This document shows, piece by piece, positions 3,790-25,044 of a DNA stretch of 49,284 nucleotides. A program made the position numbers and the translations under genes. The DNA is taken from positions 1 through 49,284 of the IMG/VR virus record IMGVR_UViG_3300031555_003080. One strand, 5' to 3'. Numbering within the stretch: the first letter of the stretch is position 1; every line of letters begins with the position of its first letter. The notes beneath the pieces are model-generated. The model saw only the letters and a program-made list of their open reading frames with translations, was not told the DNA's origin and ran no database searches. Source of the DNA: a virus.

Positions 3790-6700
3790 ATGAGTAATAC
3801 TGAATTTCGTCCAGTAAGAGGTACTCAAGCTACTATTGATGCTTTACCAATTACAGACGGATACGTTTATTACGCAGTAGACACTGGTCGCATTTATATG
3901 GACAAAGGCGACGCAAGAATCTCCATGGGCGGAGGCGGAGCCGCAAACGGTTCTTCTATCTATTTCGGCGTTTATGGCAAAGAAATTAAAGAAGACTCTG
4001 AAACTAAAATGTATTATTATCCTATTGATGGTTTAGAAGATAAAAATGCTGAACCTCGAGTAGATGATATGATTTTGGATGACACTGGCGCCCTATACCG
4101 CATTAAGAGAATCGGTGAAACTTCTTATGCTTGTACTTTATTGCCTTTAAGCGGCAATGGAAGTGGACCTACCATTATTCGTCCTAATCTTACAATCGCA
4201 AGCATTCCTAACCCAATTATTATTAATGGACAGCCTTTTGAAATTACTTTTACTGTAACTTCAATCGTTGAAGAAAGCGGTTCTCCATTGGCAGAGGATA
4301 TGACTGTCTATTGGTCTTTAATTGATAAAGATAGTGGTCAGGTCTATTATAAAGGAACTCCAGTAGGAGTAAAACATAACGTTCCTTATAATTTACCTGT
4401 TGGCGATTATTTAAAAGAATCTGCTGAAACTGTTATTGAACTCTATGCAGAAGCTCTTAACCATGATGAAGCATCTGCAATTAGACAAGCAACTGTTACT
4501 ACTGTTGAAATGTATTTAGAGCATACTTCTCGTTATAATCCTGCAAACAGATATAGTTCAACTAATGTAAATCTTGAGTGCAATGCTATCGGTAACTTGT
4601 CTAAGATTTTAGAGTGGAGCGTTGATGGAGGCGTTGTTGAAAGTAAAGTTCTTACTCCAAATTCAACCAACCCTCAAACATTTACAGTTCCCACCGCATT
4701 AGCTACTCATGGATATCATACTATTCAAGTTGATTTATATCAAAATTTGGGTAGTGCAGATTCACCTAAAAAAGGTATTTCCGCAAATCCTTTAATCTAT
4801 GAAATTGCAGTTACTGAAGCAGGCAATAATACTCCTATCATTTGGATGGGTGAGTATCAAGATACTTATTATAACTATGACACAATTCAAATTCCTTTCA
4901 TGGTTTATAATCCTGCGAATACCAGTAGCGTAGAAGTTCGTTTAAAGAAAAACGATGTAGAAATTGATGGTTCTCCAAGAACTATTGAAGAATTTAGTGA
5001 TTATTCTTATTGGCAGATTGCTGATGCAGATTTAAATAAAGAAAATTATTATTCTATTGAGTGCGGTAAAACTATTGATACTACTGTTGTACGTGAAATC
5101 AAGTTTAAGGTTATTCCTGACCCTAACCGCGATATGACTGTTGTTAAGCAAAATAGCTTACAGTTAAATTTTGATCCAGCTGGTCGTTCTAATGCAGAAC
5201 CTACAACAAAGCGTGCATCTTGGTCTTATACCAGAGGCGGCACTGAATATAAAGCTGAATTTGATAACTTTAACTGGTATAATAATGGTTGGTACACTGA
5301 CAGTGAAAGTAAGAGCACTTTCTTAAGAATTAGTAATGGTGCTAAATTTACCATTCCATTTGAAGGTGGTTTGGAATTCGGCACAAGTGATACTGCAAAA
5401 CAATCTAATGCAATTGAATTAGCATTTAAAGTTAGAAATATTCAGAATTATTCTAACTTGATCACTAACGTAACTCGTTATAATATTCCTACTGCATTTG
5501 GAGACGATGGTAAGCCTACTTCTTATACTTCTGACGCTTCTCTTTATGAGAATGAATTTAAGAATCAGTCTTTATATACCAACTACGATGCTTTCTTGCA
5601 GGCAAGATTAGAGCCTGATGTTTACGACAACTTACAATTCCGTGAAGTTCAAAAGAACGTAAACTTAAGTAATGCAGTATTTGGCTTCTATAGCGGTAAT
5701 AATAATAATGCAGTTGGTGTATGTGTAGGTTCTCAAGATACTTTCTTCTCTAATGGTTATGATACCGTTAACGTATCTTTCGTTGAAGGAGAAATGGTAT
5801 ACTTAAGCTTCGTTTATGAGCATACTCCTGCTGTTGGCAGTAAGTTATACATTTATATTAATGGTTGTATTACTGGTGTTATTGAGTCTTCTATTACTGG
5901 CGATACCGGTTTTAAGATCAATACTAATGAAATTGTTTTTAATAGTGAAACTTGTGATATTGACCTTTATAAAATGAGAATTTATAATACCGCACTTACT
6001 GTTAATGATATTGTTACTAACCACGCAGTAGATAAAAAGAATATTACTATTTATGACCAGAATGGTTTGGCCATTGAAAACCAAGCTCTTCAAGAATTCC
6101 AGCTCGATTTTAAAAAGATTGAAAACTGGAATAAAGAACATCCAGAGCTTCCTTTGATGCCTTACATTATTTATGATACTTCTACTACAACTTCTGACGA
6201 TAAGCTTCCTTATGCTAAAGCAAATGGTGCTACTAAGATTAGAGTAGAATTCGTAAATACTCCTCTTGATACTGCTTATGCACGTGGCGAGTTGGTTAAA
6301 AAGGCTGTTGAAGATGGACTCTTGGATGAACTCGAAACTGATCAAGAAACTATTGACGAAGCTGTTCGTATTTATTATAAGCACCACTGTCCTTCTTGGA
6401 CTTCTACAATGACAACTGGTGATGTTGTAGGTCTTGAAGTTCAAGGTACTTCTTCTGAGTTCTATCCTCGTAGAAACTTTAAGATTAAAACTAAACATGG
6501 TGGCGAATGCTGCTGGGGCGATCTTGAAGACGATGACGGCAATGTTATTGGCCAGGGATGGACTGAAGAAGAATGCTTAAATATCTTTATGAATAAAGGT
6601 CCTTTTGAGGAAATTTATGAAGCAGATAAAGAAAAATTAAAAGCGGACGAACATTATTACGGCTATGAAGAGTCTCGTATGTTTGATGGTTGGTATATGA

Positions 6701-9700
6701 ATAACTATACTAATCCAACAGATAGATGGACTATGAAGGTCGACTATATGGAGTCTTCTGGATCTTATAATGCTGGTTTTGCAAGTCTTGTTGGTAATGC
6801 TTACACCAAGCATCCCCTTCAGGATTATGTAAAGGCAGGAGTATTAACAAATACAGGCGAACTTGAAAATGATGTATTTGGCGATATGAGATGGAAAGAC
6901 TTTAGAACTTCTCTCTTGGGCTTCCCAGTTATGGCGTTCCATAAGAGAAAAGTAAAAGGTTCTTCTACTGGTGAAACAGAATGTGTCTTTATTGGTTATT
7001 ATAGGATGCTTTTAGATAAGGGCTCTGACCAAGTTCTTGGTTTTAAGGCTCCTAAAAAAATTAAGCATACTTTAGTAGATAACCAAAGATTAAGAGATGT
7101 TGCAGAGTGTTGGGAATTCTCAACTAATGCAAGAACTTTCTGTTCTTATAAAGACCCATGGGACCGTGTTGAATTAAGCTTTAAAGGTCCTGCATCTGAA
7201 GGAGATAAAGTCTTTATTAAACTTGAAGGTAATAAAATTGGTGGACCTATGGTTCTTAACCATTTTGAACCTCGTTATTTTGCATATGAGGATTACTTAA
7301 AGAATGATGAAGATGGCTTCTATAATTTTGGAAATCTCGATCAAGATACTGTTGATGCAATGTGTGATGATATTGGAATTGATAGAATTGACATTGCTGC
7401 AGAGGATGCTAAATATAAAGCCCAAGATGGCGCTGTTTACTTAATGCGCAATTGGGAAAAAGTATGTAAATGGATTTATAGCACCAATTTAGATAATGTA
7501 AAATCTCAAGGTGAATACAAAGTTGCTCCTGTTGGTAAAGTTGTATATGAGCCAGGTAAATTCTATGTAATGGATGATACTGTTGAGGGTGGTTACAGAA
7601 TTTCTGATGATGCTTTTGATCCAGACGAAACCTATTTCGAGATTGTAGATTATGAAGTAGAAGTAGAAAAAACTGACGAAGAGGGAAATCCTATTCTTGA
7701 TGAAGATGGAAATCCTGAAATGGAGACTGTAACTCGTCAAACTTATGCAAATGCTTATGCAACTACATCTGATTTGATTTATAAGCCAAATACATTCTAT
7801 GTAGATGTCTCTGGAGCTTACTCTCTCTGTTCTGATGCTGAATTTGATACATCTACTACTTATTATATCTTTGAATCTTTAGCAGATGAAAAGATTGCTG
7901 AAATTGCTGACTTGCTCGTTGAGCCTGCTACAGCATGGGATGAAAATACTGAATATTATACTTATAATAGAGACGCCAAAGTTATTTCTGGCGGTGGCAA
8001 GACAGAAGCGGTAACTTACGTAGGTAAAGTTAGCAACGAGCGTTTTGCAGCAAATAATTACTATGTTGCAGCACCTAAGAAATATGCAAGTACTACATAT
8101 AAGTATGATACAAAAGAATATAGAACCGCAAAATTCATGAATGAGTTAAAAGACCACTTCGATTTAGAATATCTTGCAACTTATTTCATTATGACAGAAG
8201 TTTTCGAGTGCTATGACTCTCGTGGTAAGAACTGTATGATGGCTTCTTGGGGTCCATTAAAAGAGGGCGGAGACTACATTTGGTATCCTATCTTCTATGA
8301 TATTGATACTCAGTTAGGTATTAATAATACCGGTATTCCTTCTTTCGAATTTAATGTTGACGCAACTGAGGCTGGAAACTATTCTACTTCTGACAGTATC
8401 TTATGGAATAACTTCTATAAGTTCTTCAAAGGTTCTCAAATTTTAAATAAATATAAGAACTTGAGAAATCAAGATTCTACTTTTGATAAATTAGATAATC
8501 CTCCATTGCAGAGTGTTGACTATCTTGAGAAATGGTATACTTTTAATGAAGAAGTAACTAAGAATATCGCAGATAGAGGACAAAGACCTTTGATTGCAAC
8601 CAACTTAGATATGTATTATAAGTATATTACAATCACTAACCCTAAAGCAGAAAGCCAAGGTGTAGCTTATATTCCTGGTTCTGATGGTGTTTATGATTAC
8701 GATAAAGATGGAACTTATTTCTATGCATTACAGGGCGACCGCTCTCAGTCTAGACGTCAGTTCTTAACCAACCGTATTGAATATATTGACTCTTGGTTGA
8801 ACCAAGGTAACTATCAACGTGGTGGTAACAACCGTATTCGTGGACGTATTTCTGCAAACAGTGGTGAAAACGGTAAGACTTCTGACTGGTGGGTTGAAAC
8901 TGATCTTGATCCATACTGGACCGATCAGGAATTTGGCACTAAGTCTCATGACTTCGACGCTGAATATTGGTTAACCTTACAACCAATTCGAAGTGCATAT
9001 GTTACCGCAGGTGACGACAGCGCAAACTATCCTTCTCAGAAGTATGATGGTAAGAACCCTGTTAAATTTAAATTGGGCGATATTGAAGCTGGTGTTCGTA
9101 AGAGTAATAACTATCCTGAGCAGTTGGTTTATATTTATGGTATGAATCAAATGTCTGATTTCGGTGAAATGAATAAGCTTTACTGGACTGAGTTCTATAT
9201 GGAAGGTAATGCCGATCACTTAACTCGTTTACAGCTTGGATATGATGGATTTAGTAAAACTGATCCTACTGTACAATGGTATAACCAGAAGTTGAATGGT
9301 ATTAAGTTATCTGATATGCCTCTGTTGCAAGAAGCTAACTTCAGTAGAATTACACTTCAAACTCAAACAAGTTTGGATTTAAGTGCTTCTGAAAAGCTTG
9401 AAAACTTTAGAGCTGTTGGAACAAGTAACTTGACCAGTGTAAACTTTGCAGATGGTGTTGCATTAAATACTTTGTATTTACCTAAGTCTGTAACTTCTTT
9501 AAAACTTGTTCAAGCTAACCTCTTGGATAATTTGATTGCTGAAGGTACTGCTCCAACTCCTGTAAACAATGAAGATGGAACTGTAACTCCTCCAACTCAA
9601 GGTTTGTTTATTGACGGTTTCTTTAGTGACACTTTCGATTCTGCATTAACAAGCATTCATTTCAATGGTGGCGCTTTAGGCTTTGGTACTTATCAGATTT

Positions 9701-11478
9701 TGAAGAAGTATTATGATTATATTGCTTCTAAACCTGAAGACAGTACTTCTTATAAGTTAACCATGAAAGATGTTAACTGGTCTCCTTATGTTCAGTTAAC
9801 TGAAGGCGCTGTTTATGATGCAGCTGAAACCAATTATTATATTAATGATAGACACTACGGATTTACTGCTTGGACTAAGAATGCTGCAGCATTTGATGAT
9901 CTTGTTCTTAATGGACAGCTTTATTTGTATACTGGTGAACCAAAGGTAAATATTGATGATAGCTTTATTGAAATGCTTCAAAATATTTACAATAATAAAG
10001 TTAACTTCGAAGACGCTTCTGCAAGCAATACTCGTCCAATTATTTCTGGTATTGTTTATGTTAATAATACAAATGCAGTTGAAGAGAGCTGGATTAGAAA
10101 TACTCTACAAGAGTTGTATCCAGATTTAACATTCTTCTTTGCTTCTGTAGAAAAAGCTTACTCTGCTGAATTCTTCTATAAAGATCCAGATACTGGAGTA
10201 GATAAATACGTTAAGTTTGCTAATGGTGATACCGCACCTTCTATTCAGAAAATTGCTAAATCTGCTTATGATGCAAATAATAACGTATGGTTTGAAGATC
10301 CTTTCACTCTTTACGCTCCTACAAGAGCTCACTATGACTTTAAGGGTTGGAGTACAGATCCCGATGCAGATCCAAGCACTGATACAGCTAACATTATCGA
10401 AAATGTTGATGAATGGAATGCATTAAAGATTAACTCTACTACTTACGACTATAAGTATTATGCAATCTTTGCAATTCACTCTTATGATATTATTTTCTAC
10501 GACGGCGATGGCTCTATCCTTGAAGGTTCTATCCTTCCTTATGGAACTGATGGAATTCCTGTTCCTTCTTTAGTTCCTGGATTAGATGATTCTGGTCTTG
10601 ATTTGTATGAAACTAATACCTTTGTGGGTTACACAGATAATACTTTAACTAATAAGATTGTAAATCCTGCTCAGATTACCGTTCGCGGTAAAATGGAATT
10701 CTGGCCTGTTTTTGATCAGGTAGATGTTTATACCAATATTCATCCAGAATATTTCCATGGAGATTTCTATACTGGAGAAACTGGAGTTAGAGGCGTTGAA
10801 CTTTACTTAGATAAGCGTGTTCAAGGCAAACTTACAATTCCAAAAGTATTTAAGATGGAAGATGGAAAAGAATATCCTGTATTGGCATTAAACGCAACCT
10901 TTGCAACAACCTATAATCCTGAATCAGGTAAGGGTTATTCAAATGGTGATAAACTTACTCACGTGTTCTTTGAAAAAGGAACTTCAATTGAGGCTTTCCT
11001 CGATTATGCTTTCTTTGGACACGGCACACAAACAGGTAAGAGCGTATTAACATATGTAGAGTTCCCAGATACTTTACTTACTATTGGATGGCAATGTTTC
11101 ATCCGTTGTAGTCTTTTAGATTATCGTGTAGTAACACAAGATCCGACAAAACTTCCTACCGCTGTTATTAGAGGCGCTAAGGTAAGACAGATTAGTGAGC
11201 AAGCATTCCAGCAAGCATTTAAATCATATTCTGTAACTGATTTCCAAATTGGATCAAGTGTTGAAACTCTTCAAAGTAGAGTATTTAATAATATTGGTAT
11301 TTCAGCTAATACCTTACTTATTGGTACTCCTAATGAAGATTCTAAATTAGTAATTTATACTAATGACAGAATTATGAATACCGCTTCTAATGTATTGTTC
11401 TACACTAGCAACTACACAGAAGATGATATTGGTACATTGCAACCTAACTTCCCAGGAGCTGCAATCCAAATCAAATAA
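3790..11478 (+). CDS. giant (2562 aa) virion protein, putative tail fibre / receptor-binding multidomain protein
   Basis: Uninterrupted 7.7-kb ORF with RBS AAAGGAG. Its N-terminus (IDALPITDGYVYYAVDTGRIYMD) is related to the N-termini of the 1993 and 14797 gene products. No catalytic motif was recognised. Confidence 0.8.
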   Translation: MSNTEFRPVRGTQATIDALPITDGYVYYAVDTGRIYMDKGDARISMGGGGAANGSSIYFGVYGKEIKEDSETKMYYYPIDGLEDKNAEPRVDDMILDDTGALYRIKRIGETSYACTLLPLSGNGSGPTIIRPNLTIASIPNPIIINGQPFEITFTVTSIVEESGSPLAEDMTVYWSLIDKDSGQVYYKGTPVGVKHNVPYNLPVGDYLKESAETVIELYAEALNHDEASAIRQATVTTVEMYLEHTSRYNPANRYSSTNVNLECNAIGNLSKILEWSVDGGVVESKVLTPNSTNPQTFTVPTALATHGYHTIQVDLYQNLGSADSPKKGISANPLIYEIAVTEAGNNTPIIWMGEYQDTYYNYDTIQIPFMVYNPANTSSVEVRLKKNDVEIDGSPRTIEEFSDYSYWQIADADLNKENYYSIECGKTIDTTVVREIKFKVIPDPNRDMTVVKQNSLQLNFDPAGRSNAEPTTKRASWSYTRGGTEYKAEFDNFNWYNNGWYTDSESKSTFLRISNGAKFTIPFEGGLEFGTSDTAKQSNAIELAFKVRNIQNYSNLITNVTRYNIPTAFGDDGKPTSYTSDASLYENEFKNQSLYTNYDAFLQARLEPDVYDNLQFREVQKNVNLSNAVFGFYSGNNNNAVGVCVGSQDTFFSNGYDTVNVSFVEGEMVYLSFVYEHTPAVGSKLYIYINGCITGVIESSITGDTGFKINTNEIVFNSETCDIDLYKMRIYNTALTVNDIVTNHAVDKKNITIYDQNGLAIENQALQEFQLDFKKIENWNKEHPELPLMPYIIYDTSTTTSDDKLPYAKANGATKIRVEFVNTPLDTAYARGELVKKAVEDGLLDELETDQETIDEAVRIYYKHHCPSWTSTMTTGDVVGLEVQGTSSEFYPRRNFKIKTKHGGECCWGDLEDDDGNVIGQGWTEEECLNIFMNKGPFEEIYEADKEKLKADEHYYGYEESRMFDGWYMNNYTNPTDRWTMKVDYMESSGSYNAGFASLVGNAYTKHPLQDYVKAGVLTNTGELENDVFGDMRWKDFRTSLLGFPVMAFHKRKVKGSSTGETECVFIGYYRMLLDKGSDQVLGFKAPKKIKHTLVDNQRLRDVAECWEFSTNARTFCSYKDPWDRVELSFKGPASEGDKVFIKLEGNKIGGPMVLNHFEPRYFAYEDYLKNDEDGFYNFGNLDQDTVDAMCDDIGIDRIDIAAEDAKYKAQDGAVYLMRNWEKVCKWIYSTNLDNVKSQGEYKVAPVGKVVYEPGKFYVMDDTVEGGYRISDDAFDPDETYFEIVDYEVEVEKTDEEGNPILDEDGNPEMETVTRQTYANAYATTSDLIYKPNTFYVDVSGAYSLCSDAEFDTSTTYYIFESLADEKIAEIADLLVEPATAWDENTEYYTYNRDAKVISGGGKTEAVTYVGKVSNERFAANNYYVAAPKKYASTTYKYDTKEYRTAKFMNELKDHFDLEYLATYFIMTEVFECYDSRGKNCMMASWGPLKEGGDYIWYPIFYDIDTQLGINNTGIPSFEFNVDATEAGNYSTSDSILWNNFYKFFKGSQILNKYKNLRNQDSTFDKLDNPPLQSVDYLEKWYTFNEEVTKNIADRGQRPLIATNLDMYYKYITITNPKAESQGVAYIPGSDGVYDYDKDGTYFYALQGDRSQSRRQFLTNRIEYIDSWLNQGNYQRGGNNRIRGRISANSGENGKTSDWWVETDLDPYWTDQEFGTKSHDFDAEYWLTLQPIRSAYVTAGDDSANYPSQKYDGKNPVKFKLGDIEAGVRKSNNYPEQLVYIYGMNQMSDFGEMNKLYWTEFYMEGNADHLTRLQLGYDGFSKTDPTVQWYNQKLNGIKLSDMPLLQEANFSRITLQTQTSLDLSASEKLENFRAVGTSNLTSVNFADGVALNTLYLPKSVTSLKLVQANLLDNLIAEGTAPTPVNNEDGTVTPPTQGLFIDGFFSDTFDSALTSIHFNGGALGFGTYQILKKYYDYIASKPEDSTSYKLTMKDVNWSPYVQLTEGAVYDAAETNYYINDRHYGFTAWTKNAAAFDDLVLNGQLYLYTGEPKVNIDDSFIEMLQNIYNNKVNFEDASASNTRPIISGIVYVNNTNAVEESWIRNTLQELYPDLTFFFASVEKAYSAEFFYKDPDTGVDKYVKFANGDTAPSIQKIAKSAYDANNNVWFEDPFTLYAPTRAHYDFKGWSTDPDADPSTDTANIIENVDEWNALKINSTTYDYKYYAIFAIHSYDIIFYDGDGSILEGSILPYGTDGIPVPSLVPGLDDSGLDLYETNTFVGYTDNTLTNKIVNPAQITVRGKMEFWPVFDQVDVYTNIHPEYFHGDFYTGETGVRGVELYLDKRVQGKLTIPKVFKMEDGKEYPVLALNATFATTYNPESGKGYSNGDKLTHVFFEKGTSIEAFLDYAFFGHGTQTGKSVLTYVEFPDTLLTIGWQCFIRCSLLDYRVVTQDPTKLPTAVIRGAKVRQISEQAFQQAFKSYSVTDFQIGSSVETLQSRVFNNIGISANTLLIGTPNEDSKLVIYTNDRIMNTASNVLFYTSNYTEDDIGTLQPNFPGAAIQIK

Positions 11479-11849: not shown

Positions 11850-13994
11850 GTGATTACTGCTATTAAAGCCGAAAATATTAGTGCTTATAAGGCATTATTT
11901 GAAGAGGCTTCCGACATCCTTAGTGGCTATAAGAGAGTTAGAACTTATGATAGTGAGGTAGACGCTTATTATTATAAAGATGCTGAAGCAGAAACTGCAG
12001 ATGAACTTTTTAAGAAAGATACCACTATCACTGACTTGGTAACCTTTGCACAGTCTTTAGCAAAGTACTCTGTTCTTTATGTTAAAGAAGGAGAGGCCGC
12101 AGAAGGATTTGAGCCAATGCTTGGCATTACCACTTTAGAAGAATATTTCAGCTGGTTAAGAAATCTTGGTAATATTGATAGAAAATATACTGTATTACCT
12201 TTAGATGAAGACCATTTTGAGATTAATGCCGACACTCGCGCAATTAGTATTCCTGCAAGCTTCAAGAAGAATGGCGTTGCTGTTCAAGGTGATGACCTTG
12301 CAGAAGTTTTATACTTCAGAGTAGACCGCTACTTTGACTATATGGACTTAAACAACACTGATATTTATATTCAGTGGGAAACTCCAAAAGATCCAGTAAC
12401 TGGACTTACTACAAAATCTTTATCTCCTGCTTATATTCGTGACATTGATAGTGAACCAGGTAAATTAATTTTCGGCTGGGCATTGTCTGATGCTATTACC
12501 GCAAATTCTGGTACTCTTAAATTCTCTGTTCGTTTCTTCCAGTGGGCAGATGATGAAAAGGCTGCAACAGGCGCAGAAAAGATTATTGCTTACAGCTTTA
12601 GTACTTTAACTGCTTCTGTATCTATTCAGGCAGGTCTTAATTTTAATTTAGAGTCTGATGAACATAAGGTAGACGATGTTGGAAATCGTTTAATCGAGCG
12701 TCTTGAAAATAGTGAAATTGCTGGTGGTTATGCTGCTGCAACTCCTATCTTTGAAAAGAATCTTGATAAACCTAATGCAGATCTTATCTATGATCTCGAT
12801 CCAGCAACTCAGACTTTTGATCTTTTAGTTCAAGCTTATGCTACCGATACTGGAGCAATTACTTACACTTGGAAGAAGCAAGGATTAAATCCTGATAACT
12901 CTGAGCAGGGTCAAGATATTGAGACTTTTACAGGAGTTAATGTATTCGTAAAAGTTGAAGATTTGACTAAATTAAATAAAGCTTATGCTTACTATTGGAC
13001 TAATGGTAACGACAGTAATGGCGATCCTATCTATACCAGATATGATAGATTTACTACTAATGCTGACGGCACCCTTTCTCCTAATACTGAAGATTTAGAT
13101 ATGAAAGACGCAGAAGGCAATAAAACTTTTGCTCTTTATGTAAAACAATCTAAATTTACTGCCGATAGTGCTGGTTTATATTGGTGTGTTGCCGAAAACC
13201 GTATTACAAACAGTTCTTCTTCTGCATTAAGTAAAAAGGCAAAATTCCCTCGTCCAGAAGATGTTAGAATTTCTGAACATCCTGCGGCAAAAGCAATTTT
13301 GACTGAACTTGCAGATGGAACCCTTGAATGTAAATTGGTAGTCGTTGCTGATAATACTGATGGTGTTTTAACTTATCAGTGGCAAAAAGATGATAATTAT
13401 GCTCTTAACTTTGGTTCTGAGACTCCTGCATTTGAAGATGTTCTTGAAGTTGAAGGAAACACTGGTAAAGATGCAGAATATATTGTAACTGCTCCTGGAC
13501 ATTATAGAGTTGTTGTAACTAATACAAGAAATTACTCTGATGCAAAAGAAGAGTACAAAGAATGGGCTAAGAAAACTTTAATTTCTGAAGTAAGCCGTGT
13601 AACTAAGTTCCCATCTATGCCTGTTATCATGGATGCAGATTTGAACAGTAAGTTATTCCAAGTTAGTGCATTAACTGATGAAAATTGTCCTACTGTTGAA
13701 ATGAACCCAGATGTTGAGTCTGATGGATACACTGTATCTTGGTTCTTAAATGAAGACAATATTGATTACCCAATTGCAGAAGATATTAATCTTGGTAAAG
13801 ATGCTGATGGAAATATTATTCTTAAGGCTTCTTTCAACCCAGCTTCTCCTTTGTATGCTGACAAGATTACAAACTTGAGTAGCGATAGAGATATTGACGG
13901 TGCTTATTATGCTATCGTTACTAACTGGGTAAATGGTGAATCTAACTCAACAAAGAAACCAGAATTCGAAGACATGTTCAAGGTCAATAAGTAA
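11850..13994 (+). CDS. virion structural protein (714 aa), unknown function
   Basis: GTG-initiated ORF with an AAGGA RBS. Its N-terminal region shares a domain with the 209-aa protein at 14023 (..VLYFRVDRYFDYMDL...IQWETP vs ..IIWFKTDRFYDNIDL...IQYVNA). Confidence 0.7.
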   Translation: MITAIKAENISAYKALFEEASDILSGYKRVRTYDSEVDAYYYKDAEAETADELFKKDTTITDLVTFAQSLAKYSVLYVKEGEAAEGFEPMLGITTLEEYFSWLRNLGNIDRKYTVLPLDEDHFEINADTRAISIPASFKKNGVAVQGDDLAEVLYFRVDRYFDYMDLNNTDIYIQWETPKDPVTGLTTKSLSPAYIRDIDSEPGKLIFGWALSDAITANSGTLKFSVRFFQWADDEKAATGAEKIIAYSFSTLTASVSIQAGLNFNLESDEHKVDDVGNRLIERLENSEIAGGYAAATPIFEKNLDKPNADLIYDLDPATQTFDLLVQAYATDTGAITYTWKKQGLNPDNSEQGQDIETFTGVNVFVKVEDLTKLNKAYAYYWTNGNDSNGDPIYTRYDRFTTNADGTLSPNTEDLDMKDAEGNKTFALYVKQSKFTADSAGLYWCVAENRITNSSSSALSKKAKFPRPEDVRISEHPAAKAILTELADGTLECKLVVVADNTDGVLTYQWQKDDNYALNFGSETPAFEDVLEVEGNTGKDAEYIVTAPGHYRVVVTNTRNYSDAKEEYKEWAKKTLISEVSRVTKFPSMPVIMDADLNSKLFQVSALTDENCPTVEMNPDVESDGYTVSWFLNEDNIDYPIAEDINLGKDADGNIILKASFNPASPLYADKITNLSSDRDIDGAYYAIVTNWVNGESNSTKKPEFEDMFKVNK

Positions 13995-14022: not shown

Positions 14023-14652
14023 ATGAAGGTTTCTCCACAAGAATATAATAGCTTATTAGGTAGACTTATTGACCCCAATGAGTATACTAATTTTCTCCGT
14101 ATCCCGGCGGATGAGCCAATTTATGAAATTGATTTAAATCAAAGAAAAATTAATGTTCCTGAGTTCTTGAGCGTTGAAGAAGATCACAATGCAGAAATCA
14201 TTTGGTTTAAAACTGATAGATTTTATGACAATATTGATTTATATGAATCTACTTGTTGGATTCAATATGTTAACGCTAATAATGAAGAGTATTTCTATGC
14301 GGCGCCAATTATTATTGGCGCCCAAGAATTTGGAAATGAGCAGATTTTAATTCCTTGGGCAATTAGTAAAGAAGTTGCTAAAGCTACAGGCGTTATTTCT
14401 TTTTCTTTCCAATTCTTTAAATTAAGTGAAGATAAAAATCGCTTCCTTTATGTACTAAATACTCAGGTAGCAAAGAGCAAAATCTTAGCTGGCCTTCGTG
14501 TTGATCCTCTGGCTTTCTTAACAGATGACGAAAAAGAGGAGTCAGATTTTTTGCCACAAAGAGAATGGCTCACCAATGAAATTACAAGATTGCATGATGC
14601 TTATTCTACATTATCTGGAGATTATAAGCTATATTGGATTGATCTATTATAA
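14023..14652 (+). CDS. hypothetical virion protein (209 aa), paralogous to the N-terminal part of the 714-aa protein
   Basis: ORF with RBS AGAAAGGAG and the shared motif noted above. Confidence 0.7.
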   Translation: MKVSPQEYNSLLGRLIDPNEYTNFLRIPADEPIYEIDLNQRKINVPEFLSVEEDHNAEIIWFKTDRFYDNIDLYESTCWIQYVNANNEEYFYAAPIIIGAQEFGNEQILIPWAISKEVAKATGVISFSFQFFKLSEDKNRFLYVLNTQVAKSKILAGLRVDPLAFLTDDEKEESDFLPQREWLTNEITRLHDAYSTLSGDYKLYWIDLL

Positions 14653-15554: not shown

Positions 15555-16631
15555 ATGTCATTATATTTAGGACCTAACTTAATTAGTGGAGTTTTTACAA
15601 CTTTTCATACTACTACTTATGATACTGGCGATGCTACCGCTACAGCGCCAGATATTTTATCTGGTAAAACTGCTTATGTAAACGGAGCGAAAGTAACTGG
15701 AACTATGCCTCAAAAAACTGGTTCTGATATTACTAAAAGCGGAGCGTCCTTTACAGTTCCTTCCGGATATTATTCTTCTAGCTATACTGGTACAATTGCT
15801 AGTGGAGCTTTAAGAACTCCTACGTATAGCACTACAGCTTCTACTGGTCAAGTTACCGTTACTTACGGAGTCTCTACTGCAGGATATTTAGCAACAAGTT
15901 CACCAACTTGGACTTTTACTCCTTTTACAAAAAGAACTTCAGTAGTTACAACATATGGTAGTACTATAACTCCATCTACTACAGGAACAAAAACTATTAC
16001 TATTCCAGCGGGATATTATCCAACAGCAGAAACCCTTACTATTGCTAAGGCTGCCGCAGGAGGTGCGGCTCAAACAGGAACTATTTCAGCAAGCTCTAGG
16101 ACTTATACTATTTCAACCTCTTTTACTCCAAAAGGGTTTATGATGATTTCTTCAAGCTATTATTTTGATGGAGATTTAAATTTAATGTCTCTTTGGGCTT
16201 TTAATAGTTCTACTTCAGCTTCTGGTTATTATGAGACTAGTAGTAGCGGAAGTAGCGGAAGTGGCACTTATACCGTGGTAACCAGTGATTTGTTCGGTAG
16301 TTTATTTTATGATCCACCAGACAGTACAGCCAGTGACTATGAGCCTGCTGAATTAGTTCTACCAGGAGACTTTACATCAGCTATGTATGCCAGCGTTTTA
16401 GACCCATATTTGACTAATCCTGCTTCATACTATGTTGAAGGAAGTGACGCTACATTGGGTGATTTAGGATGGAGTGACTATGCAGTTTACAGCAGTGGCG
16501 GTGGAAGTAGTGGTAGTACTGGTGCATATCCTGTTTCTGGATGTTCAGTTTCTTATTCTTCTACTGGAATTACTGTTTCTGTAAATAGCTCTTACTATTG
16601 CCCAACAATGAGCTATGTTGTTTGGGGGTGA
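15555..16631 (+). CDS. Ser/Thr/Gly-rich tail-fibre-like protein
   Basis: 358 aa with RBS AAGGAGG and extreme S/T/G/Y content. It is adjacent to a fibre gene. Confidence 0.7.
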   Translation: MSLYLGPNLISGVFTTFHTTTYDTGDATATAPDILSGKTAYVNGAKVTGTMPQKTGSDITKSGASFTVPSGYYSSSYTGTIASGALRTPTYSTTASTGQVTVTYGVSTAGYLATSSPTWTFTPFTKRTSVVTTYGSTITPSTTGTKTITIPAGYYPTAETLTIAKAAAGGAAQTGTISASSRTYTISTSFTPKGFMMISSSYYFDGDLNLMSLWAFNSSTSASGYYETSSSGSSGSGTYTVVTSDLFGSLFYDPPDSTASDYEPAELVLPGDFTSAMYASVLDPYLTNPASYYVEGSDATLGDLGWSDYAVYSSGGGSSGSTGAYPVSGCSVSYSSTGITVSVNSSYYCPTMSYVVWG

Positions 16632-16635
16632 TTGA

Positions 16636-16893
16636 ATGTATTTTGGAAAACAATTGCATGAGAATTCTTTTTCTTTAATATCTTCATCTTTACCTATAAT
16701 GGCTTCAGACACTTTAATTGAAATTTCTGAAGAGGAATTTAATGAATTGTCAAAGACAATTAGATTGAAGCAAATTTTAGAAAAAAGAAAAAGACTTGAA
16801 GATTTAAATATTATTAAACGAAGAGAAGAAATTATACCAGAAATCGTTGAGCCTAATCAGTCCTTTGTAATTAATGAGGAGGATCAGGTATGA
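16636..16893 (+). CDS. hypothetical protein (85 aa)
   Basis: ORF with a GGGGGTG RBS. Its stop overlaps the next start (ATGA). Confidence 0.5.
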   Translation: MYFGKQLHENSFSLISSSLPIMASDTLIEISEEEFNELSKTIRLKQILEKRKRLEDLNIIKRREEIIPEIVEPNQSFVINEEDQV

Positions 16894-17567
16894 TTGATAT
16901 AAAAAAAGATGTAAAAATACAAGACTTATATAATTATTATTATATGATTTCATTGTATAATTTAATAAAATTTTATAATTGTAAATGGGAATTTTTATCT
17001 ATTAATGATAAAAATTTTTTAAATGGCACTAATCTTAAATATGATGATTTTTCTGTTAATAAATATTTAAGATTATATCAAAATGAGAAAATAAAATTAG
17101 CAGAAGATATTATAAATAATGGAATGTATTTTCCATATTTTGTATATGGACTTCCTGATGAACAAATAGATGATAATTCTGTAAGCATTGCTTTAGGAAA
17201 ACATAGATATTATAGTAAATTACTTTATCAAAATAAGTATGGTAAAATTGACACTAAATTTTTATTCATCTATGTTCCTAATAAACTTCCTCAAAATACT
17301 CCTATAGGTTTTAATAATTGTTTTTATAATTTAGACTCTGAAGGAAATTTAACTTTACATGATACAATTTTTGTTAATTCTAAAACTGAATTAATGAAAT
17401 ATTTTGATCGATTTGGAGGAAGTCTATCTGTTTTATTTTCCGATAATAGGATTAAAACCAATCCCATATTAAATGATGAAAATCTTTTTTCTCAATTTAT
17501 TAATGCTCCTTTAGATGAAAATAACATTCTTTTTAAGTATATTCCTAGTTCTGTTGACTTAAAATGA
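16890..17567 (+). CDS. ParB/Srx-like domain protein (paralog 1)
   Basis: 225 aa and extremely AT-rich. The motif EDIINNGMYFPYFVYG...ALGKHRYYSKL parallels DIVENGMYVPFLFGE...NGSHRLNSL in the 28280 gene, and resembles the ParB/sulfiredoxin DGHHR box. Confidence 0.55.
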   Translation: MIDIKKDVKIQDLYNYYYMISLYNLIKFYNCKWEFLSINDKNFLNGTNLKYDDFSVNKYLRLYQNEKIKLAEDIINNGMYFPYFVYGLPDEQIDDNSVSIALGKHRYYSKLLYQNKYGKIDTKFLFIYVPNKLPQNTPIGFNNCFYNLDSEGNLTLHDTIFVNSKTELMKYFDRFGGSLSVLFSDNRIKTNPILNDENLFSQFINAPLDENNILFKYIPSSVDLK

Positions 17568-17603: not shown

Positions 17604-18428
17604 ATGTATATTATTGCTGAAATTGGTATTAATCATAATGGAAATATTGAGACTGCTTTAGAAATGATTAAAGCAGCAAAAGATGCTGGAGCAACTTGTG
17701 TAAAATTTCAAAAAAGAAATCCTGACGTTTGCGTTCCAGAAGATCAAAAAAATAAACCTAAGACATTTCTTGGAGAGGAAATGACTTATTTAGAATATAA
17801 AAAGAAGATTGAATTTGGAAAAGAGGAATACGATCAAATTAATGCTCTTTGCAAAGAACTTCACATTGATTGGACTGCAAGTGTTTGGGACATGGATAGC
17901 GTTAATTTTATGCTTTGGTATAAAAATGATATTCCTTTTATAAAAATTCCAAGTGCATTGATTACAGATATTGAATTATTAAAAGCTGTTGATGCAACTG
18001 GAATCCCAATTCTTATGTCTAATGGAATGAGTTCTCAAGAACAAATTGATAAAGCTATTTCTTCTTTAACTCATTTAAGCGGGCTAATGCATTGTAATAG
18101 CTCTTATCCTTGCAATCCAAAAGAATTGGATTTAAATGTAATTAAAACTTATAAAACCATTTATCCAGGTCTCACAATAGGCTATAGTGGCCATGAGGTT
18201 GGACATTTCCCTACCTGTTTAGCTGTTGCCGCAGGTGCTCAAATTATTGAAAGACATTTTACTTTAGATAATAATATGGAAGGCACCGATCAAAAAGCAA
18301 GCTTAGATAAAAAGCATTTCGAAGCAATGTGCAAAGATATTTAGGGAATAGAAGAAATTATGGGGGGATATTTACCTAAAGTTTATCCCGCTGAACAAGA
18401 AGTTGCTAAAAAATTAAGAAAGGAATGA
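17604..18428 (+). CDS. NeuB-family (sialic / nonulosonic acid synthase-like) protein lacking a SAF domain, interrupted by in-frame TAG at 18342-18344
   Basis: N-terminal IIAEIGINHNG and the ..GYSGHE...IIERHFTLD..MEGTDQKASL.. motifs are typical of NeuB/PseI/SpsE. After the TAG the same frame continues GIEEIMGGYLPKVYPAEQEVAKKLRKE, matching the NeuB region IR.vE..mG.GiK.v.PaEq....rkS, before TGA at 18426-18428. Confidence 0.65.
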
Positions 18429-20851: not shown

Positions 20852-20900
20852 TTAAAACAAAACAAATGGAGACAAAATAAAACAAATGGAGGTAAATAAT

Positions 20901-21638
20901 ATGTTTAAAGGAAATGGTGGATATAATTTATCTGATATTGCTGCTGTAACCCGTGGCAGCAATGGAGACGGCCTGTGGGGTGGAGATGGAGCTTGGTGGA
21001 TTATCCTTCTCTTCTTATTTGCTGGATGGGGTAATGGAGGATACGGTGGAGGCCTTGGTGGCGGAAACGCTAGAGATGCGGTATCTTATGGTTTCGACAT
21101 TAATGGTCTTGAGAATGGTATTCGTGGTTTAGAACATGGCATTTGTGATGGTTTCTATGATATGAATACTAGCTTAATGACCGGTTTTGGCAACACCGCA
21201 ATGGGTGCAATGCAAAACACTAATGCTATTATGAGTCGTCTCTGTGACATGAGTGCTGACCAAGCAGCTTGCTGCTGCGAGACTCAGCGTTTAATTGAGC
21301 GTGGTTTATGCGAAGTAAATTATAATATCTTAACTCAATCTAATGCAACCAATACAAATATTTCTAATGCAGCAAGAGATATTATTGAAAACAATAATAA
21401 CGGAGTTCGTTCTATTCTTGACTTCTTAACTCAAGATAAAATTGCTACTCTTCAGGCAGAAAATCAGGCTCTTCGTCTTACTGCTTCTCAACAGGCTCAA
21501 AATAGTTATTTAATTGATCAATTGGGTGCTAAGGCTCCAATTCCTGCTTATGTAGTTGCAAATCCTAATGCAATCTATGGTGGCTATGGTTACTATAACG
21601 GTGGCTGCTATGGTACATTTAATAACTGCTGCAATTGA
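20901..21638 (+). CDS. Gly-rich membrane protein with a Cys-rich C-terminus (about 245 aa)
   Basis: Start ATG at 20901 is preferred over 20886 because of GGAGG spacing. It has one predicted TM helix (WWIILLFLFAGW), GGYGGGLGGG tracts, CCCE and a C-terminal GGCYGTFNNCCN. Confidence 0.55.
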   Translation: MFKGNGGYNLSDIAAVTRGSNGDGLWGGDGAWWIILLFLFAGWGNGGYGGGLGGGNARDAVSYGFDINGLENGIRGLEHGICDGFYDMNTSLMTGFGNTAMGAMQNTNAIMSRLCDMSADQAACCCETQRLIERGLCEVNYNILTQSNATNTNISNAARDIIENNNNGVRSILDFLTQDKIATLQAENQALRLTASQQAQNSYLIDQLGAKAPIPAYVVANPNAIYGGYGYYNGGCYGTFNNCCN

Positions 21639-21653
21639 TAAGGAGGTATGAGT

Positions 21654-22073
21654 ATGGAAATTATTGCTAATGCATTACAAACTGTTGCAGCAAATCAAAA
21701 TGTTTATTTCACTGATACTATCACCGGTGGGAGTATGTCAATCTCCCACCGCTCTAATAGCGGACTTGTGAGTTTGTTTGGCAACACAAATCAATGTCGT
21801 GCAAGATTTAAAATAACTTTTGGCGGAAATATTGCAATTCCAGCAGAAGAGACGGTGGGACCAATTTCGTTGGCAATTGCAATTGATGGAGAGGCAGTTC
21901 AATCTACAACTATGACAGTAACTCCTACCGCAGTAGATACTTTCTTTAATGTATTCTCTGCAATTTTCGTTGATGTTCCAAGAGGAAATGTTGAAACTAT
22001 TAGTGTGAAAAATATTAGTGACATTCCAATAGAATTAGAGAATGCAAATTTAATTATTGAAAGAGTTGCTTGA
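21654..22073 (+). CDS. hypothetical protein (about 139 aa), beta-rich
   Basis: RBS AAGGAGG. The second ATG is preferred on spacing grounds. Confidence 0.5.
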   Translation: MEIIANALQTVAANQNVYFTDTITGGSMSISHRSNSGLVSLFGNTNQCRARFKITFGGNIAIPAEETVGPISLAIAIDGEAVQSTTMTVTPTAVDTFFNVFSAIFVDVPRGNVETISVKNISDIPIELENANLIIERVA

Positions 22074-22087
22074 AAGGAGGAGTGAAG

Positions 22088-22660
22088 ATGTCTATTGAAA
22101 GAATGAAAACAATGAAAGAAGCTTTTATGTGTGCCGTTGAAGGTCAGATGTATAATCTTGCCGAGGTTGATGCAGAAGAGCTTGGTGAAGTTGTAGATAT
22201 GATTAAAGATTTAAGTGAAGCAATTTATTATTGTGAAGTAACAAAAGCAATGGAAGAATCTGAAAAGAATGGTAGTCAAGAGTCAATGTACTACACTCCA
22301 ATGTATTATTCCGATCGCGGAAGCGGAAACGGCAGGTCTTCATCTAATAGTAATTCCACCTCTTCTGGATCGATGAATGGAAATAATGGTACTAGTAGTT
22401 CACAGTATTATGAAAGAGAATATCCTCATGCATTTATGGACGGAAGAGAAGGAAAGAGTTATCGTTCAAGAAGAATGTATATGGAAGCTAAAGAAACTAA
22501 ACAAGATAAAGCATCACAAATGAGAGAGTTAGAAAAGTATATGCAAGAATTAACTCAAGATGTTGTTGAAATGGTTGAAGGTTCTTCTCAAGAAGAAAAG
22601 AGTTATTTAAGTAAAAAGATTTCTGCACTTGCAACAAAACTTTCTCAATTAAGTGATTAA
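22088..22660 (+). CDS. hypothetical low-complexity protein (about 190 aa)
   Basis: RBS AAAGGAGG, then ATG (MSIERM..). Central Ser/Asn/Gly-rich low-complexity segment. Confidence 0.5.
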   Translation: MSIERMKTMKEAFMCAVEGQMYNLAEVDAEELGEVVDMIKDLSEAIYYCEVTKAMEESEKNGSQESMYYTPMYYSDRGSGNGRSSSNSNSTSSGSMNGNNGTSSSQYYEREYPHAFMDGREGKSYRSRRMYMEAKETKQDKASQMRELEKYMQELTQDVVEMVEGSSQEEKSYLSKKISALATKLSQLSD

Positions 22661-22685
22661 AATTAACGGAGAAGATTGGAAGATT

Positions 22686-22916
22686 ATGTTAGCGTCTTCC
22701 AATCACCCTTCTTTGCAACGTCCAAATGGTTCTTTCACTCTTGGATGTTGTGATGATAATTTAAAAACTATTTATATTGCGGATGGGCTTACGGATTTTT
22801 ATTTTAAGAAAGTTTTGTGTCATGAGCTTGTTCATGCGTGTATGTATAGTTATAATGTCGAATTAAATGATTATCAAGAAGAAGTTTTAGCTGATTTAAT
22901 AGCCACTTATGGATAG
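22686..22916 (+). CDS. small HExxH zinc-metallopeptidase-like protein (ImmA/SprT-like?)
   Basis: Contains CHELVHACMY (HExxH). The start is uncertain (GTG at 22653 or ATG at 22686). It ends with TAG. Confidence 0.4.
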   Translation: MLASSNHPSLQRPNGSFTLGCCDDNLKTIYIADGLTDFYFKKVLCHELVHACMYSYNVELNDYQEEVLADLIATYG

Positions 22917-22970
22917 GAAATAATCTCTATAACAAATACAATTTTTTGTAGATTGCATAATTGCAAATAA

Positions 22971-23583: not shown

Positions 23584-23612
23584 ATTCTATTCTTTGACTT
23601 TGGCCAAATCAA
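23584..23612 (-). promoter_or_regulatory. sigma70-type promoter (TTGATT, 17-nt spacer, TAGAAT) for the 176-aa gene
   Basis: The reverse complement reads TTGATTtggccaaagtcaaagaaTAGAAT, about 35 nt upstream of the RBS. Confidence 0.45.
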
Positions 23613-23667
23613 ATAATATCGTTAAGATAAAAAATTAAAATAATGTAGAAGAAGAATTCGCTAGAAT

Positions 23668-23696
23668 TTGACTTTTATAATTTTTTGTGTTATAAT
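23668..23696 (+). promoter_or_regulatory. sigma70-type promoter (TTGACT, 17-nt spacer, TG-extended TATAAT)
   Basis: TTGACT at 23668-23673, a spacer ending TGTGT, and TATAAT at 23691-23696. It is divergent from the previous promoter. Confidence 0.65.
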
Positions 23697-23722
23697 AATA
23701 TTAGTAAAAGGAGGTAGCTTAT

Positions 23723-24049
23723 ATGCAAAAGATTATTATTTATTACGTTATCCCCGGAACCGAAGACACTCAAAGCATTGAACTTGTTGATTTAACTAGT
23801 TTTAAAGAAACTTTTTTAAATGAAAGACAAGAAATTCAATTTAGCTGTCAGGATACTTTTAAACCTGGTGTTTTAAAAACTCTTATGAATGCTTCTATTC
23901 AAAAGATCACTATGGAAAAGTATGATGCTGAAAATACTCTTCATTTAATTGATTTTGAAGCATATCCTGTGTTTGAAAAAATTTCACAAGATTACAAAGG
24001 AATTAAAATCGTTACAACTTTCCAGAGTATGAGTGTTTATAACTCTTAA
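23723..24049 (+). CDS. hypothetical protein (108 aa)
   Basis: RBS AAAAGGAGG. Confidence 0.55.
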   Translation: MQKIIIYYVIPGTEDTQSIELVDLTSFKETFLNERQEIQFSCQDTFKPGVLKTLMNASIQKITMEKYDAENTLHLIDFEAYPVFEKISQDYKGIKIVTTFQSMSVYNS

Positions 24050-24060
24050 GGAGGGTAATC

Positions 24061-25011
24061 ATGGCTAATCTAGTTAAAGCTGCCGATATTAGCTTAGATT
24101 CATCTTCTTGGTACCAAAGACTAAGGGCAATTCAATCAAGAATTGAAACAGGCGCTTGGACTGGAGTTACTATGACTTTGACCACTGACCCCGGTATTAA
24201 TACCGGGGCAATGGCCTTAGATGATCATTTAAATAATTTAATTTCAGCTATTTCAGCAGCTACTTCAAATGTTTTTTTGGCTTATGCCGACAAATCACAA
24301 TTACCGAGTTCAGTGTCTCCAGGCACACTAATTAAACAAATTACTTATGATGGAATTGATGCCACTTTAGATTCCATGGAATAGATTTGTAGTAATTGTT
24401 CAACATATCAGACATTCGCTAATAACAGTGGCGATTCGACATATACTACTTATAATAATACTTGTGCAACCAACAGCACTTATGAAAATACCTGTGATAC
24501 TAACTCAACATATTCAGATACCTGTGGAACTAACTCAACGTATTCAGATACCTGTGATACTAACTCAACATATTCAGATACCTGTGATACTTATTCTACT
24601 TATTCTGATACTTGTGCAACTTATTCCACTTATTCAGAAATTGCTACAAATGGTACTGAGATTACAGGTACAGCATATTCAACTGAAAATGCAAATTTAA
24701 GTGTTGCTTCTGGAGCCTATAGTTATAATTGTACTAATTATTGTGCTACTTATAATACAAATGACACATATCTAGAAAGTCAAACTTATGACACTTATTT
24801 AGAGAGTTTGACATATGAAACATATTTAGAAAGCTTAACCTATGAGACTTATTTAGAGAGTTTAATTTGTGAAACTTATGCTGAATCTTTAACTTATTCA
24901 ACATATCTTGAATCTCAAGTTTGCGCGACATATGCAGAGTCTCAAGTATATTCAACTTTTACTCAAAGCGCAGGAAATTCTACAGATGCTACATTTGCAG
25001 TTGTGACTTAA
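24061..25011 (+). CDS. candidate RiPP precursor-like gene: 107-aa N-terminal part, in-frame TAG (24382-24384), then a 209-codon Cys/Tyr/Ser/Thr/Asp-rich tandem-repeat region
   Basis: RBS AAGGAGGG before the ATG at 24061. Past the TAG the same frame stays open to TAA at 25009-25011 and contains no ATG or GTG. It encodes six TC(D/A/G)T(N/Y)STY(S/E)(D/N/E) decapeptide repeats followed by TY(E/D/S)TY(L/A)ES(L/Q) nonapeptide repeats. The repeats differ by synonymous codons (Ser as agt/agc/tct/tca, Leu as tta/ttg/cta/ctt, Glu as gag/gaa), indicating selection at the peptide level. Confidence 0.55.
24385..25011 (+). repeat. tandem 30-nt and 27-nt coding repeats (decapeptide and nonapeptide units)
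   Basis: Direct repeats such as cagatacctgtgatactaactcaacatatt (three near-identical copies) and acttatttagagagtttgacatatgaaacatat-type units. Confidence 0.8.
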
Positions 25012-25044
25012 GCTTTCAATTAAGAGAAAAAGGAGTTTAATAAA

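Follow-up and report, generated by a model that had tools for sequence, protein, structure and literature searches.

A Phage Gene with a Predicted Internal Sense TAG Encodes a Candidate Substrate of Two Radical-SAM Enzymes

Layout of the Gene and Its Repeat Tail

The stretch of DNA analyzed here, hereafter the window, comprises the 49,284 nucleotides of IMG/VR virus record IMGVR_UViG_3300031555_003080, and the gene in question lies on its plus strand at 24061–25011, directly upstream of the genes for two putative radical S-adenosylmethionine (rSAM) enzymes, rSAM1 and rSAM2. The coding sequence consists of 316 sense codons, an in-frame TAG being counted among them, followed by TAA, and it divides into an N-terminal domain and a repeat tail. 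Direct reading of the sequence places a strong Shine–Dalgarno motif, aaggaggg (24048–24055), 5 nt before the ATG at 24061. The N-terminal domain of ~107 aa (24061–24381) is conserved, leader-like, and predicted to be helical. The TAG, codon 108 (24382–24384), sits at the boundary between this domain and the tail, and its reading as a sense codon comes from relatives. Two codons past the TAG is Cys110 (24388–24390), the sole invariant residue of the junction and tail part in alignment A3; together with W17 and G49, it is invariant across the family of precursor-like proteins to which the gene product belongs (alignments A3 and A4).

Beyond the TAG the frame is unchanged and stays open for 208 sense codons, up to the TAA at 25009–25011, a run for which the base composition gives a chance probability of ~2e-7 per start position. 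A model that saw only the letters (the sequence-only reading) had reported this open frame, at 209 codons, along with its Cys- and Tyr-containing repeats, and both are real: there are six decapeptides of the type (N/D)TC(A/D/G)T(N/Y)STY(E/S) at 24457–24636 (Tandem Repeats Finder period 30, 5.0 copies, 86% matches), followed by seven to eight nonapeptides of the type TY(E/D/S)TY(L/A)ES(L/Q) at 24757–24972 (period 27, 73% matches). Thr, Ser, Tyr, Asn, and Cys account for 23%, 14%, 13.5%, 9%, and 6% of the tail, which is acidic, is devoid of Lys, Arg, His, Pro, Met, and Trp, and carries 12 N-x-S/T sequons. With TAG read as Gln (code 15), the predicted peptide would contain ...LDSMEQICSNCSTYQ..., and a 107-aa product would end in ...DSME.

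The same reading held that the region contains neither ATG nor GTG. The tail does indeed lack an in-frame ATG, but GTG occurs at 25003, as the penultimate sense codon. The only other start-like codon in frame is TTG 24808, which, as had been stated, lacks a ribosome-binding site. A separate start for the tail, either at this TTG or at an ATT after the TAG, was rejected because neither has a ribosome-binding site and because the relatives possess one continuous gene. Two ORFs in other frames, one at 24428–24700 on the plus strand (90 aa, hydrophobic) and one at 24746–24955 on the minus strand (69 aa), were likewise rejected, as by-products of the repeats. Hydrophobic alternative-frame ORFs that resemble the one at 24428–24700 are also present in the related locus L001 (loci from relatives are designated by L and a number).

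Comparison with Relatives Points to a Single Gene with a Translated Tail

When the fused sequence was used as a query, six database proteins (P0001–P0006) were found that cover both halves as single proteins, with identities of 46–84%, and in the DNA of L006, L007, L106, L004, L005, L001, and L107 the two halves occupy one continuous frame. These comparisons indicate that 24061–25011 is a single gene with an internal sense TAG, in place of the two units, a 107-aa ORF and a start-less peptide joined to it, that had been proposed from the letters alone. The TAG at codon 108, flanked by DSME on one side and ICSN on the other, is common to L006, L007, and L106, which come from different samples and independent assemblies. 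It is present as well in the much diverged L107, L111, and L127, the rSAM1 proteins of L107 and L111 being 61% and 39% identical to that of the window. Two clusters of 107-aa calls made under code 11 (11 member sequences) are consistent with a TAG at codon 108. Other relatives have an ordinary sense codon at the equivalent position: GGG (Gly) in L004 and L005, Ser in L001, Lys in L108, and Asn in L110 and L115. Database proteins show Q at 108 because their gene caller translated TAG as Gln; for the two whose DNA was checked, P0001 (L006) and P0002 (L007), the codon is TAG.

TAG also appears at other sites in the gene. It is codon 19 in L004, L005, and L107 (between SSWY and RLRR in L004 and L005), where the window has CAA, encoding Gln19, and calls under the standard code cut the L004 and L005 genes back to a start at Met38. 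In L001/L002, a 126-kb IMG/VR relative, the precursor-like gene contains eight TAGs, in addition to the Ser at the junction.

Comparison of substitution rates indicates that purifying selection acts on the tail as a translated sequence, also among the genomes that share the TAG. In the tail, the ratio of nonsynonymous to synonymous substitution rates (dN/dS) is 0.21 against L006 and 0.35 against L007, both of which share the TAG, with dS about 0.4; values against L004 and L005 are similar, and the ratio is 0.69 against the far more distant L001. For the N-terminal domain, dN/dS is 0.11–0.17 against L004–L007 (≥48% identity) and 0.34 against L001. Alignments of the tail contain zero stops and only such indels as add or remove whole repeat units. 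Within the window, the repeat copies differ mainly synonymously, the proportions of synonymous and nonsynonymous differences (pS and pN) being 0.50 and 0.15 for the decapeptides and 0.76 and 0.26 for the nonapeptides. An untranslated remnant would not keep its frame, a low dN/dS, and indels confined to whole units, which argues for translation. Selection at the peptide level had been suggested from the synonymous differences between repeat copies, and it is borne out by the excess of pS over pN, by the dN/dS values, and by the conserved frame. The loss of the frame in relatives, which the sequence-only reading had named as evidence that would count against it, was not seen: the frame is intact in every relative. 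We also agree with its view that expression requires decoding of the TAG.

The tails of relatives are hypervariable in sequence and range in length from about 90 to 280 aa, and they are always of low complexity and rich in Cys with Ser, Thr, Asn, or Gly. Most of them contain regularly spaced aromatic residues. Positions occupied by Tyr are replaced by Trp or Phe in relatives (TYLESL, TWAESL, TFLESL; FSD in L108), so that a repeated aromatic-x-(D/E/N) motif, present in dozens of copies, is retained.

TAG as a Sense Codon Elsewhere in the Window

Of the plausible ORFs in the window, only three terminate at TAG under the standard code, and all three continue in homology past it. In addition to 24061–25011, these are a NeuB-family gene (17604–18428, plus strand), encoding a predicted sialic or nonulosonic acid synthase, and a gene for an HExxH metalloprotease-like protein (22653–22970, plus strand). 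The TAG of the NeuB-family gene (18342–18344) corresponds to residue 247 and is spanned by the Pfam NeuB match, which covers residues 21–255; 14 of 18 IMG/VR relatives align past it to within a few residues of the same C-terminus, the best three share the C-terminal AKKLRKE, and the standard code shortens the gene by 27 codons. Its presence suggests phage-encoded sugar synthesis close to a protein rich in Thr, Ser, and N-x-S/T sequons. In the metalloprotease-like gene, the TAG is at 22914–22916, and the L002 homolog (16580–16888) aligns over residues 1–103 of 105 with 60% identity and has TAG at the same codon. The position of this TAG is thus conserved at an identity of no more than 60%.

When the three genes are extended through their TAGs, the 48 genes of the window end 33 times in TAA, 15 times in TGA, and never in TAG, and the density of sense TAGs is 3 in 15,715 codons. 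All three belong to the plus strand and fall within 17.6–25 kb, in a block of tail-fiber-like and other nonreplication genes that we take to be the late block; none is found in the minus-strand replication block at 29–49 kb. Recoding is dense in the relatives: alignments of L002 to window proteins contain 26 in-frame stops, all of them TAG, 13 of which are opposite a Gln of the window. From these comparisons, the lineage of the window appears to read TAG as an amino acid, in a recoding that is genome-wide but, in the window, sparse, and the inserted residue is probably Gln, as in code 15. The exceptional readthrough event that had been envisaged as joining two units gives way to an ordinary internal sense TAG, given that all three TAG genes continue and that the relatives are densely recoded.

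The Radical-SAM Cassette

The gene is embedded in a cassette. Upstream of it is a gene for a small partner protein of 108 aa (23723–24049, plus strand), which has no family match and has counterparts at the same position in L004, L005, L007, L106, L001, L107, and L108. Downstream lies the gene for rSAM1 (25045–26412, plus strand; 455 aa), which matches Pfam Radical_SAM (E = 1.7e-6) and has 463 homologs in the protein database. Its CX3CX2C motif (C16/C20/C23) is invariant and C248 is nearly invariant in alignment A2, and C294, C312, and C420 are conserved. The next gene encodes rSAM2 (26409–27824, plus strand; 471 aa), a predicted rSAM/SPASM protein in which both the CX3CX2C motif (C48/C52/C55) and the complete seven-Cys SPASM motif (C320, C338, C385-x2-C388-x5-C394-x3-C398, and C417) are found in seven of seven sequences. 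Its NCBIfam matches include weak ones to SPASM, SCIFF, and PapB. For the enzyme pair, the SPASM domain model TIGR04085 scores 23.5, the cut-off being 27, and the best match in the PDB is the rSAM enzyme ChlB (E = 0.0016). The last member, at 27791–28303 (plus strand), encodes a partner protein of ~170 aa with an L004 homolog detected by tblastn; inspection by eye suggests that the proteins encoded at the equivalent site in L107, L108, and L113 are homologous as well. The precursor-like, 108-aa, and 170-aa proteins, and a 331-aa protein (28227–29222) that follows the cassette, had no match in Pfam, PHROGs, or NCBIfam. By tblastn, a 225-aa protein (16890–17567) is weakly similar, at 28% identity, to the L004 homolog of the 331-aa protein, and the two may be paralogs.

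Linkage was assessed in the window, L106, L004, L005, L001/2, L107, L108/9, L110, L111, L115, L113, and L127. The cassette is found next to rSAM1 in all twelve relatives examined, which are gut-associated Firmicute phages or phage-like contigs, and the precursor-like gene adjoins an rSAM1 homolog in all loci, directly upstream of it except in L113. The closer relatives share the order ~100–127-aa protein, precursor-like gene, rSAM1, rSAM2, and ~170–200-aa protein. In L113 the order is tail-fiber gene, rSAM1, rSAM2, 200-aa protein, precursor-like gene, amidase endolysin, and tail genes, and in L107 and L002 the cassette comes after giant leucine-rich repeat (LRR) and fiber-like genes. Some relatives' cassettes hold a fuller gene set of the kind associated with ribosomally synthesized and posttranslationally modified peptides (RiPPs) than the window does: L127 (2592–10642) has YcaO, GT2, and Peptidase_C39_2 in the neighborhood, and L108 (162–4767) has YcaO and an rSAM–GT2 fusion.

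Several other genes of the window recur in relatives. A giant protein of 2,562 aa (3790–11478; phrog_14959) has a counterpart with LRR_5 repeats in L107; it is followed by fiber-like genes at 11850–13994 and 14023–14652, whose homologs lie immediately ahead of the cassette in L002 and L107. At 20886–22073 a Gly/Cys-rich protein of 250 aa (phrog_16490), ending in ...GGCYGTFNNCCN, is paired with a 141-aa protein (phrog_20016), and this pair is conserved in L004 and L002. Glycine-rich ALK_LTK_GRD proteins adjoin the cassette of L108.

Phage Type and Host

The window covers only part of a phage genome, because 184 IMG/VR relatives of its DnaB sit on contigs of 120–197 kb; neither a terminase nor a capsid gene was detected within its 49 kb. 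Its replication genes give the phage an SPbeta/Herelleviridae-like backbone: among cultured phages, those of Enterococcus and SPbeta-like phages of Bacillus come nearest, with a DnaB identity of 37–41%, and a YorH domain is present. Among GenBank phages, there was no match by blastn of 23600–28400 or by tblastn of rSAM1. The bins of metagenome-assembled genomes point to Clostridia as hosts (Clostridium, Faecalibacterium, Roseburia, and Lachnospiraceae). The minus strand at 31348–34227 encodes NrdD, an anaerobic ribonucleotide reductase, together with the activase NrdG, and their presence points to a strictly anaerobic host.

Discussion

The present study suggests, with a probability that we put at roughly 0.8, that 24061–25011 is a late gene whose codon 108, a TAG, is read as an amino acid and whose product is a substrate of rSAM1 and rSAM2. 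On this joint reading, the TAG would be decoded during infection, most likely as Gln delivered by an amber-suppressor tRNA that is encoded elsewhere in the phage genome. The resulting protein of 316 aa would join a conserved N-terminal domain of ~107 aa to a hypervariable, acidic tail of Cys, Tyr/Trp/Phe, Thr, Ser, and Asn. The N-terminal domain would serve as a recognition or leader part, and rSAM1 and rSAM2, one of them with a full SPASM domain, would install intramolecular cross-links in the form of Cys thioethers and/or aromatic C–C links. Such modification would yield a late protein that is RiPP-like or cross-linked. The idea that the 316-aa protein is an RiPP-like rSAM substrate is plausible because the cassette is conserved and because in relatives it is joined by genes for YcaO, a glycosyltransferase, and a C39-like peptidase. 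Its final role may be that of a released RiPP or bacteriocin, for which sublancin, encoded on SPbeta, is a phage-borne precedent, or it may be that of a cross-linked late or virion protein.

The NCBIfam matches of rSAM1 and rSAM2 are nearly all peptide maturases (GggB, DynA, RumMC, PapB, CcpM, SCIFF, YhhB, XyeB, GrrM, QhpD, and AmcB). The best of them belong to thioether-forming rSAM/SPASM systems, namely PapB/freyrasin ranthipeptides, SCIFF/CteB, CcpM, and the CXXX-repeat system (NF047865, TIGR03974, TIGR04068, and TIGR04115). These systems resemble the cassette in that an enzyme with CX3CX2C and a seven-Cys SPASM motif is encoded beside a gene with regularly placed Cys and acidic or aromatic residues. 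However, the window enzymes score 15–30 bits where the family cut-offs are 340–720, there are two enzymes, the precursor is 300–390 aa long and has a 107-aa, folded-looking N-terminal domain in place of a short leader, no RiPP recognition element (RRE) was detected, and the cassette is phage-borne and lies in a late-gene block. XyeB, YhhB, and GrrM are maturases of three-residue cyclophanes (triceptides), and PqqE-type enzymes cross-link Glu to Tyr. The recurrence of aromatic-x-(D/E/N), the retention of Tyr, Trp, or Phe, and weak matches to YhhB, XyeB, GrrM, and AmcB recall these systems, although the window enzymes fall below every family threshold. In QhpC/QhpD, an rSAM/SPASM enzyme makes several Cys-to-Asp/Glu thioethers in a protein subunit and not in a short peptide. 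This system (matched through TIGR03906) thus provides a precedent for a substrate of protein size, but the homology is at the level of the superfamily only and the context is unrelated. None of the papers searched describes such a phage cassette, which appears to be an undescribed variant of the rSAM/SPASM peptide-modification systems. It is of more interest than the recoding itself, combining as it does two highly divergent rSAM enzymes with a Cys/aromatic repeat protein of giant size.

Programmed readthrough of a stop codon is known from the A1 extension of phage Qbeta, where, as here, a stop codon separates a short product from a long, in-frame C-terminal extension. In contrast to A1, the TAGs of the relatives fall at many sites in the same and in other genes, and a change of code therefore fits better than a site-specific leaky stop. 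TAG-to-amino-acid recoding of phage late genes is already known, and the window adds another case. Low-GC phages have been described as losing TAG stops first and then gaining sense TAGs, read as Gln, in structural and lysis genes (10.1101/2021.08.26.457843); recoding has been proven by proteomics in crAss-like phages (PMC9523058), and a 136-kb recoded phage carries three suppressor tRNAs (PMC10607447). With the code 15 gut phages (crAss-like, Lak, Agate/Jade/Sapphire/Garnet, and phAss-1; 10.1101/2021.08.26.457843, PMC9523058, PMC10607447), the window shares TAGs within conserved genes, the confinement of sense TAGs to the structural or late block and their absence from replication genes, low GC, the loss of TAG as a terminator, a TAG density that varies among close relatives, and a predicted host that is a standard-code Firmicute. 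It differs from them in its very low TAG density, in having no suppressor tRNA or RF2 gene within the 49-kb fragment, in its SPbeta/Herelleviridae-like backbone, and in its absence from the GenBank phage collection.

A number of results weigh against the favored reading. With regard to decoding, neither a suppressor tRNA nor any other tRNA or Rfam RNA was found in the window (ARAGORN with default and relaxed settings; Rfam), the window holds no release-factor gene, and an ARAGORN scan of ~75 loci from relatives, in which tRNA arrays are present, revealed no CUA anticodon. Suppressor tRNAs were detected in only ~40% of TAG-recoded genomes by Borges et al. (10.1101/2021.08.26.457843). Nor do homologs at the window's own TAG sites single out Gln: they have G/S/K/N at codon 108, TAG in the metalloprotease-like gene, and mostly R, with Q in two, in the NeuB-family gene. 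With regard to the substrate, searches of the window with Pfam, PHROGs, and NCBIfam yielded no RRE or PqqD-like domain, leader peptidase, or exporter; no cut-off of a named maturase family is reached; and 316 aa far exceeds the usual length of an RiPP precursor. AlphaFold2 gave no confident fold for the full protein (predicted local distance difference test [pLDDT] score of 30, 7-sequence alignment) and low confidence for the N-terminal domain (pLDDT 43, 19 sequences). Finally, a tail rich in Thr, Ser, and N-x-S/T could equally fit a glycosylated structural domain. As a separate observation on the tRNA arrays, an odd tRNA-like gene called as tRNA-?(Lys|Stop), with a shortened anticodon loop and the anticodon "tt", was noted in L108 (16091–16161) and L109 (7990–8060); it heads a tRNA array ~5 kb downstream of the cassette in a TAG-recoded relative.

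The most serious competitor, though still an improbable one, accepts that the tail is translated and denies that it is an rSAM substrate: the tail, rich in Thr, Ser, and Asn and perhaps glycosylated, would form a low-complexity domain with a structural or adhesive role in a virion or fiber-associated protein, and the rSAM enzymes would act on something else. Such a role would suit a tail with 23% Thr, 14% Ser, 12 sequons, and no Lys, Arg, His, or Pro, in a cassette located among tail-fiber and lysis genes, with a NeuB-family sugar synthase nearby and GT2 genes in the cassettes of relatives. However, the precursor-like gene keeps its tight linkage to the two rSAM genes in phages with very different backbones, including L113 with its rearranged order. 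What is conserved in the tail, moreover, is Cys and aromatic-x-acidic motifs of the kind that rSAM enzymes typically target, and glycosylation and rSAM cross-linking can coexist. Somewhat less probable again is a regulated dual output, in which the TAG at the junction would act as a genuine but partly leaky stop or as a timing gate. The N-terminal domain alone would then be made early in infection or without a suppressor, and the full 316 aa once a suppressor is active. In a version of this idea that we likewise regard as doubtful, the boundary TAG has been selected as a code-switch gate that allows a cross-linkable, possibly toxic or assembly-active tail to be made only once the suppressor is on. 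The placement of the TAG exactly at the domain boundary in the window clade, L107, and L111/L127 (39–61% rSAM1 identity), at a codon that is otherwise variable (G/S/K/N) and just ahead of the invariant Cys110, would be expected of such a gate, and Borges et al. have proposed that recoded stops act as timing regulators of late genes (10.1101/2021.08.26.457843). The gate is weakened, however, because other lineages carry TAGs elsewhere in the gene: truncation at codon 19 or at the several sites seen in L004, L005, L001, L107, and L108 would be meaningless. Moreover, few lineages have been sampled, and shared ancestry or chance could explain the boundary TAG. If the gate is real, a change of code would be coupled to the timing of a giant RiPP-like phage protein matured by two radical-SAM enzymes, and the boundary TAGs in the window clade, L107, and L111/L127 would reflect convergent or conserved regulation and not chance.

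Two further explanations are contradicted by the comparative data. That the TAG is a true stop, and that what follows the 107-aa gene is an untranslated pseudogene remnant or DNA-level satellite, agrees with a standard-code ORF that ends at 24384, with the want of any start beyond it backed by a ribosome-binding site, and with a window that has no suppressor tRNA. We nonetheless consider it very improbable, since every relative, among them no fewer than four independent assemblies that carry the TAG, has kept the frame intact, the tail has a dN/dS of 0.21–0.35, whole-unit indels, and repeat copies that differ mainly synonymously, and the two other TAG genes of the window continue in homology as well. 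An error of sequencing or assembly, or a recent CAG-to-TAG nonsense mutation in one genome, would need a single C-to-T change and would accord with the Q shown by database proteins. The chance of this is negligible: those Q residues are TAG in the DNA of L006 and L007, and TAG also occurs in L106, L107, L111, and L127, which are independent and in part much diverged assemblies.

On the favored reading of a recoded late gene, calling under the standard code cuts the gene at codon 108 (and back to a Met38 start in relatives), with the result that the Cys/Tyr tail is lost and two other genes of the window are truncated. Phages of this kind are probably under-counted, because three codons in 49 kb can readily escape tests based on coding density. 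If the 316-aa protein is indeed an rSAM substrate, it would represent an unusually large phage-encoded cross-linked protein or RiPP and a source of new rSAM chemistry. The gene also offers a concrete test case for whether recoded stops time the expression of late genes.

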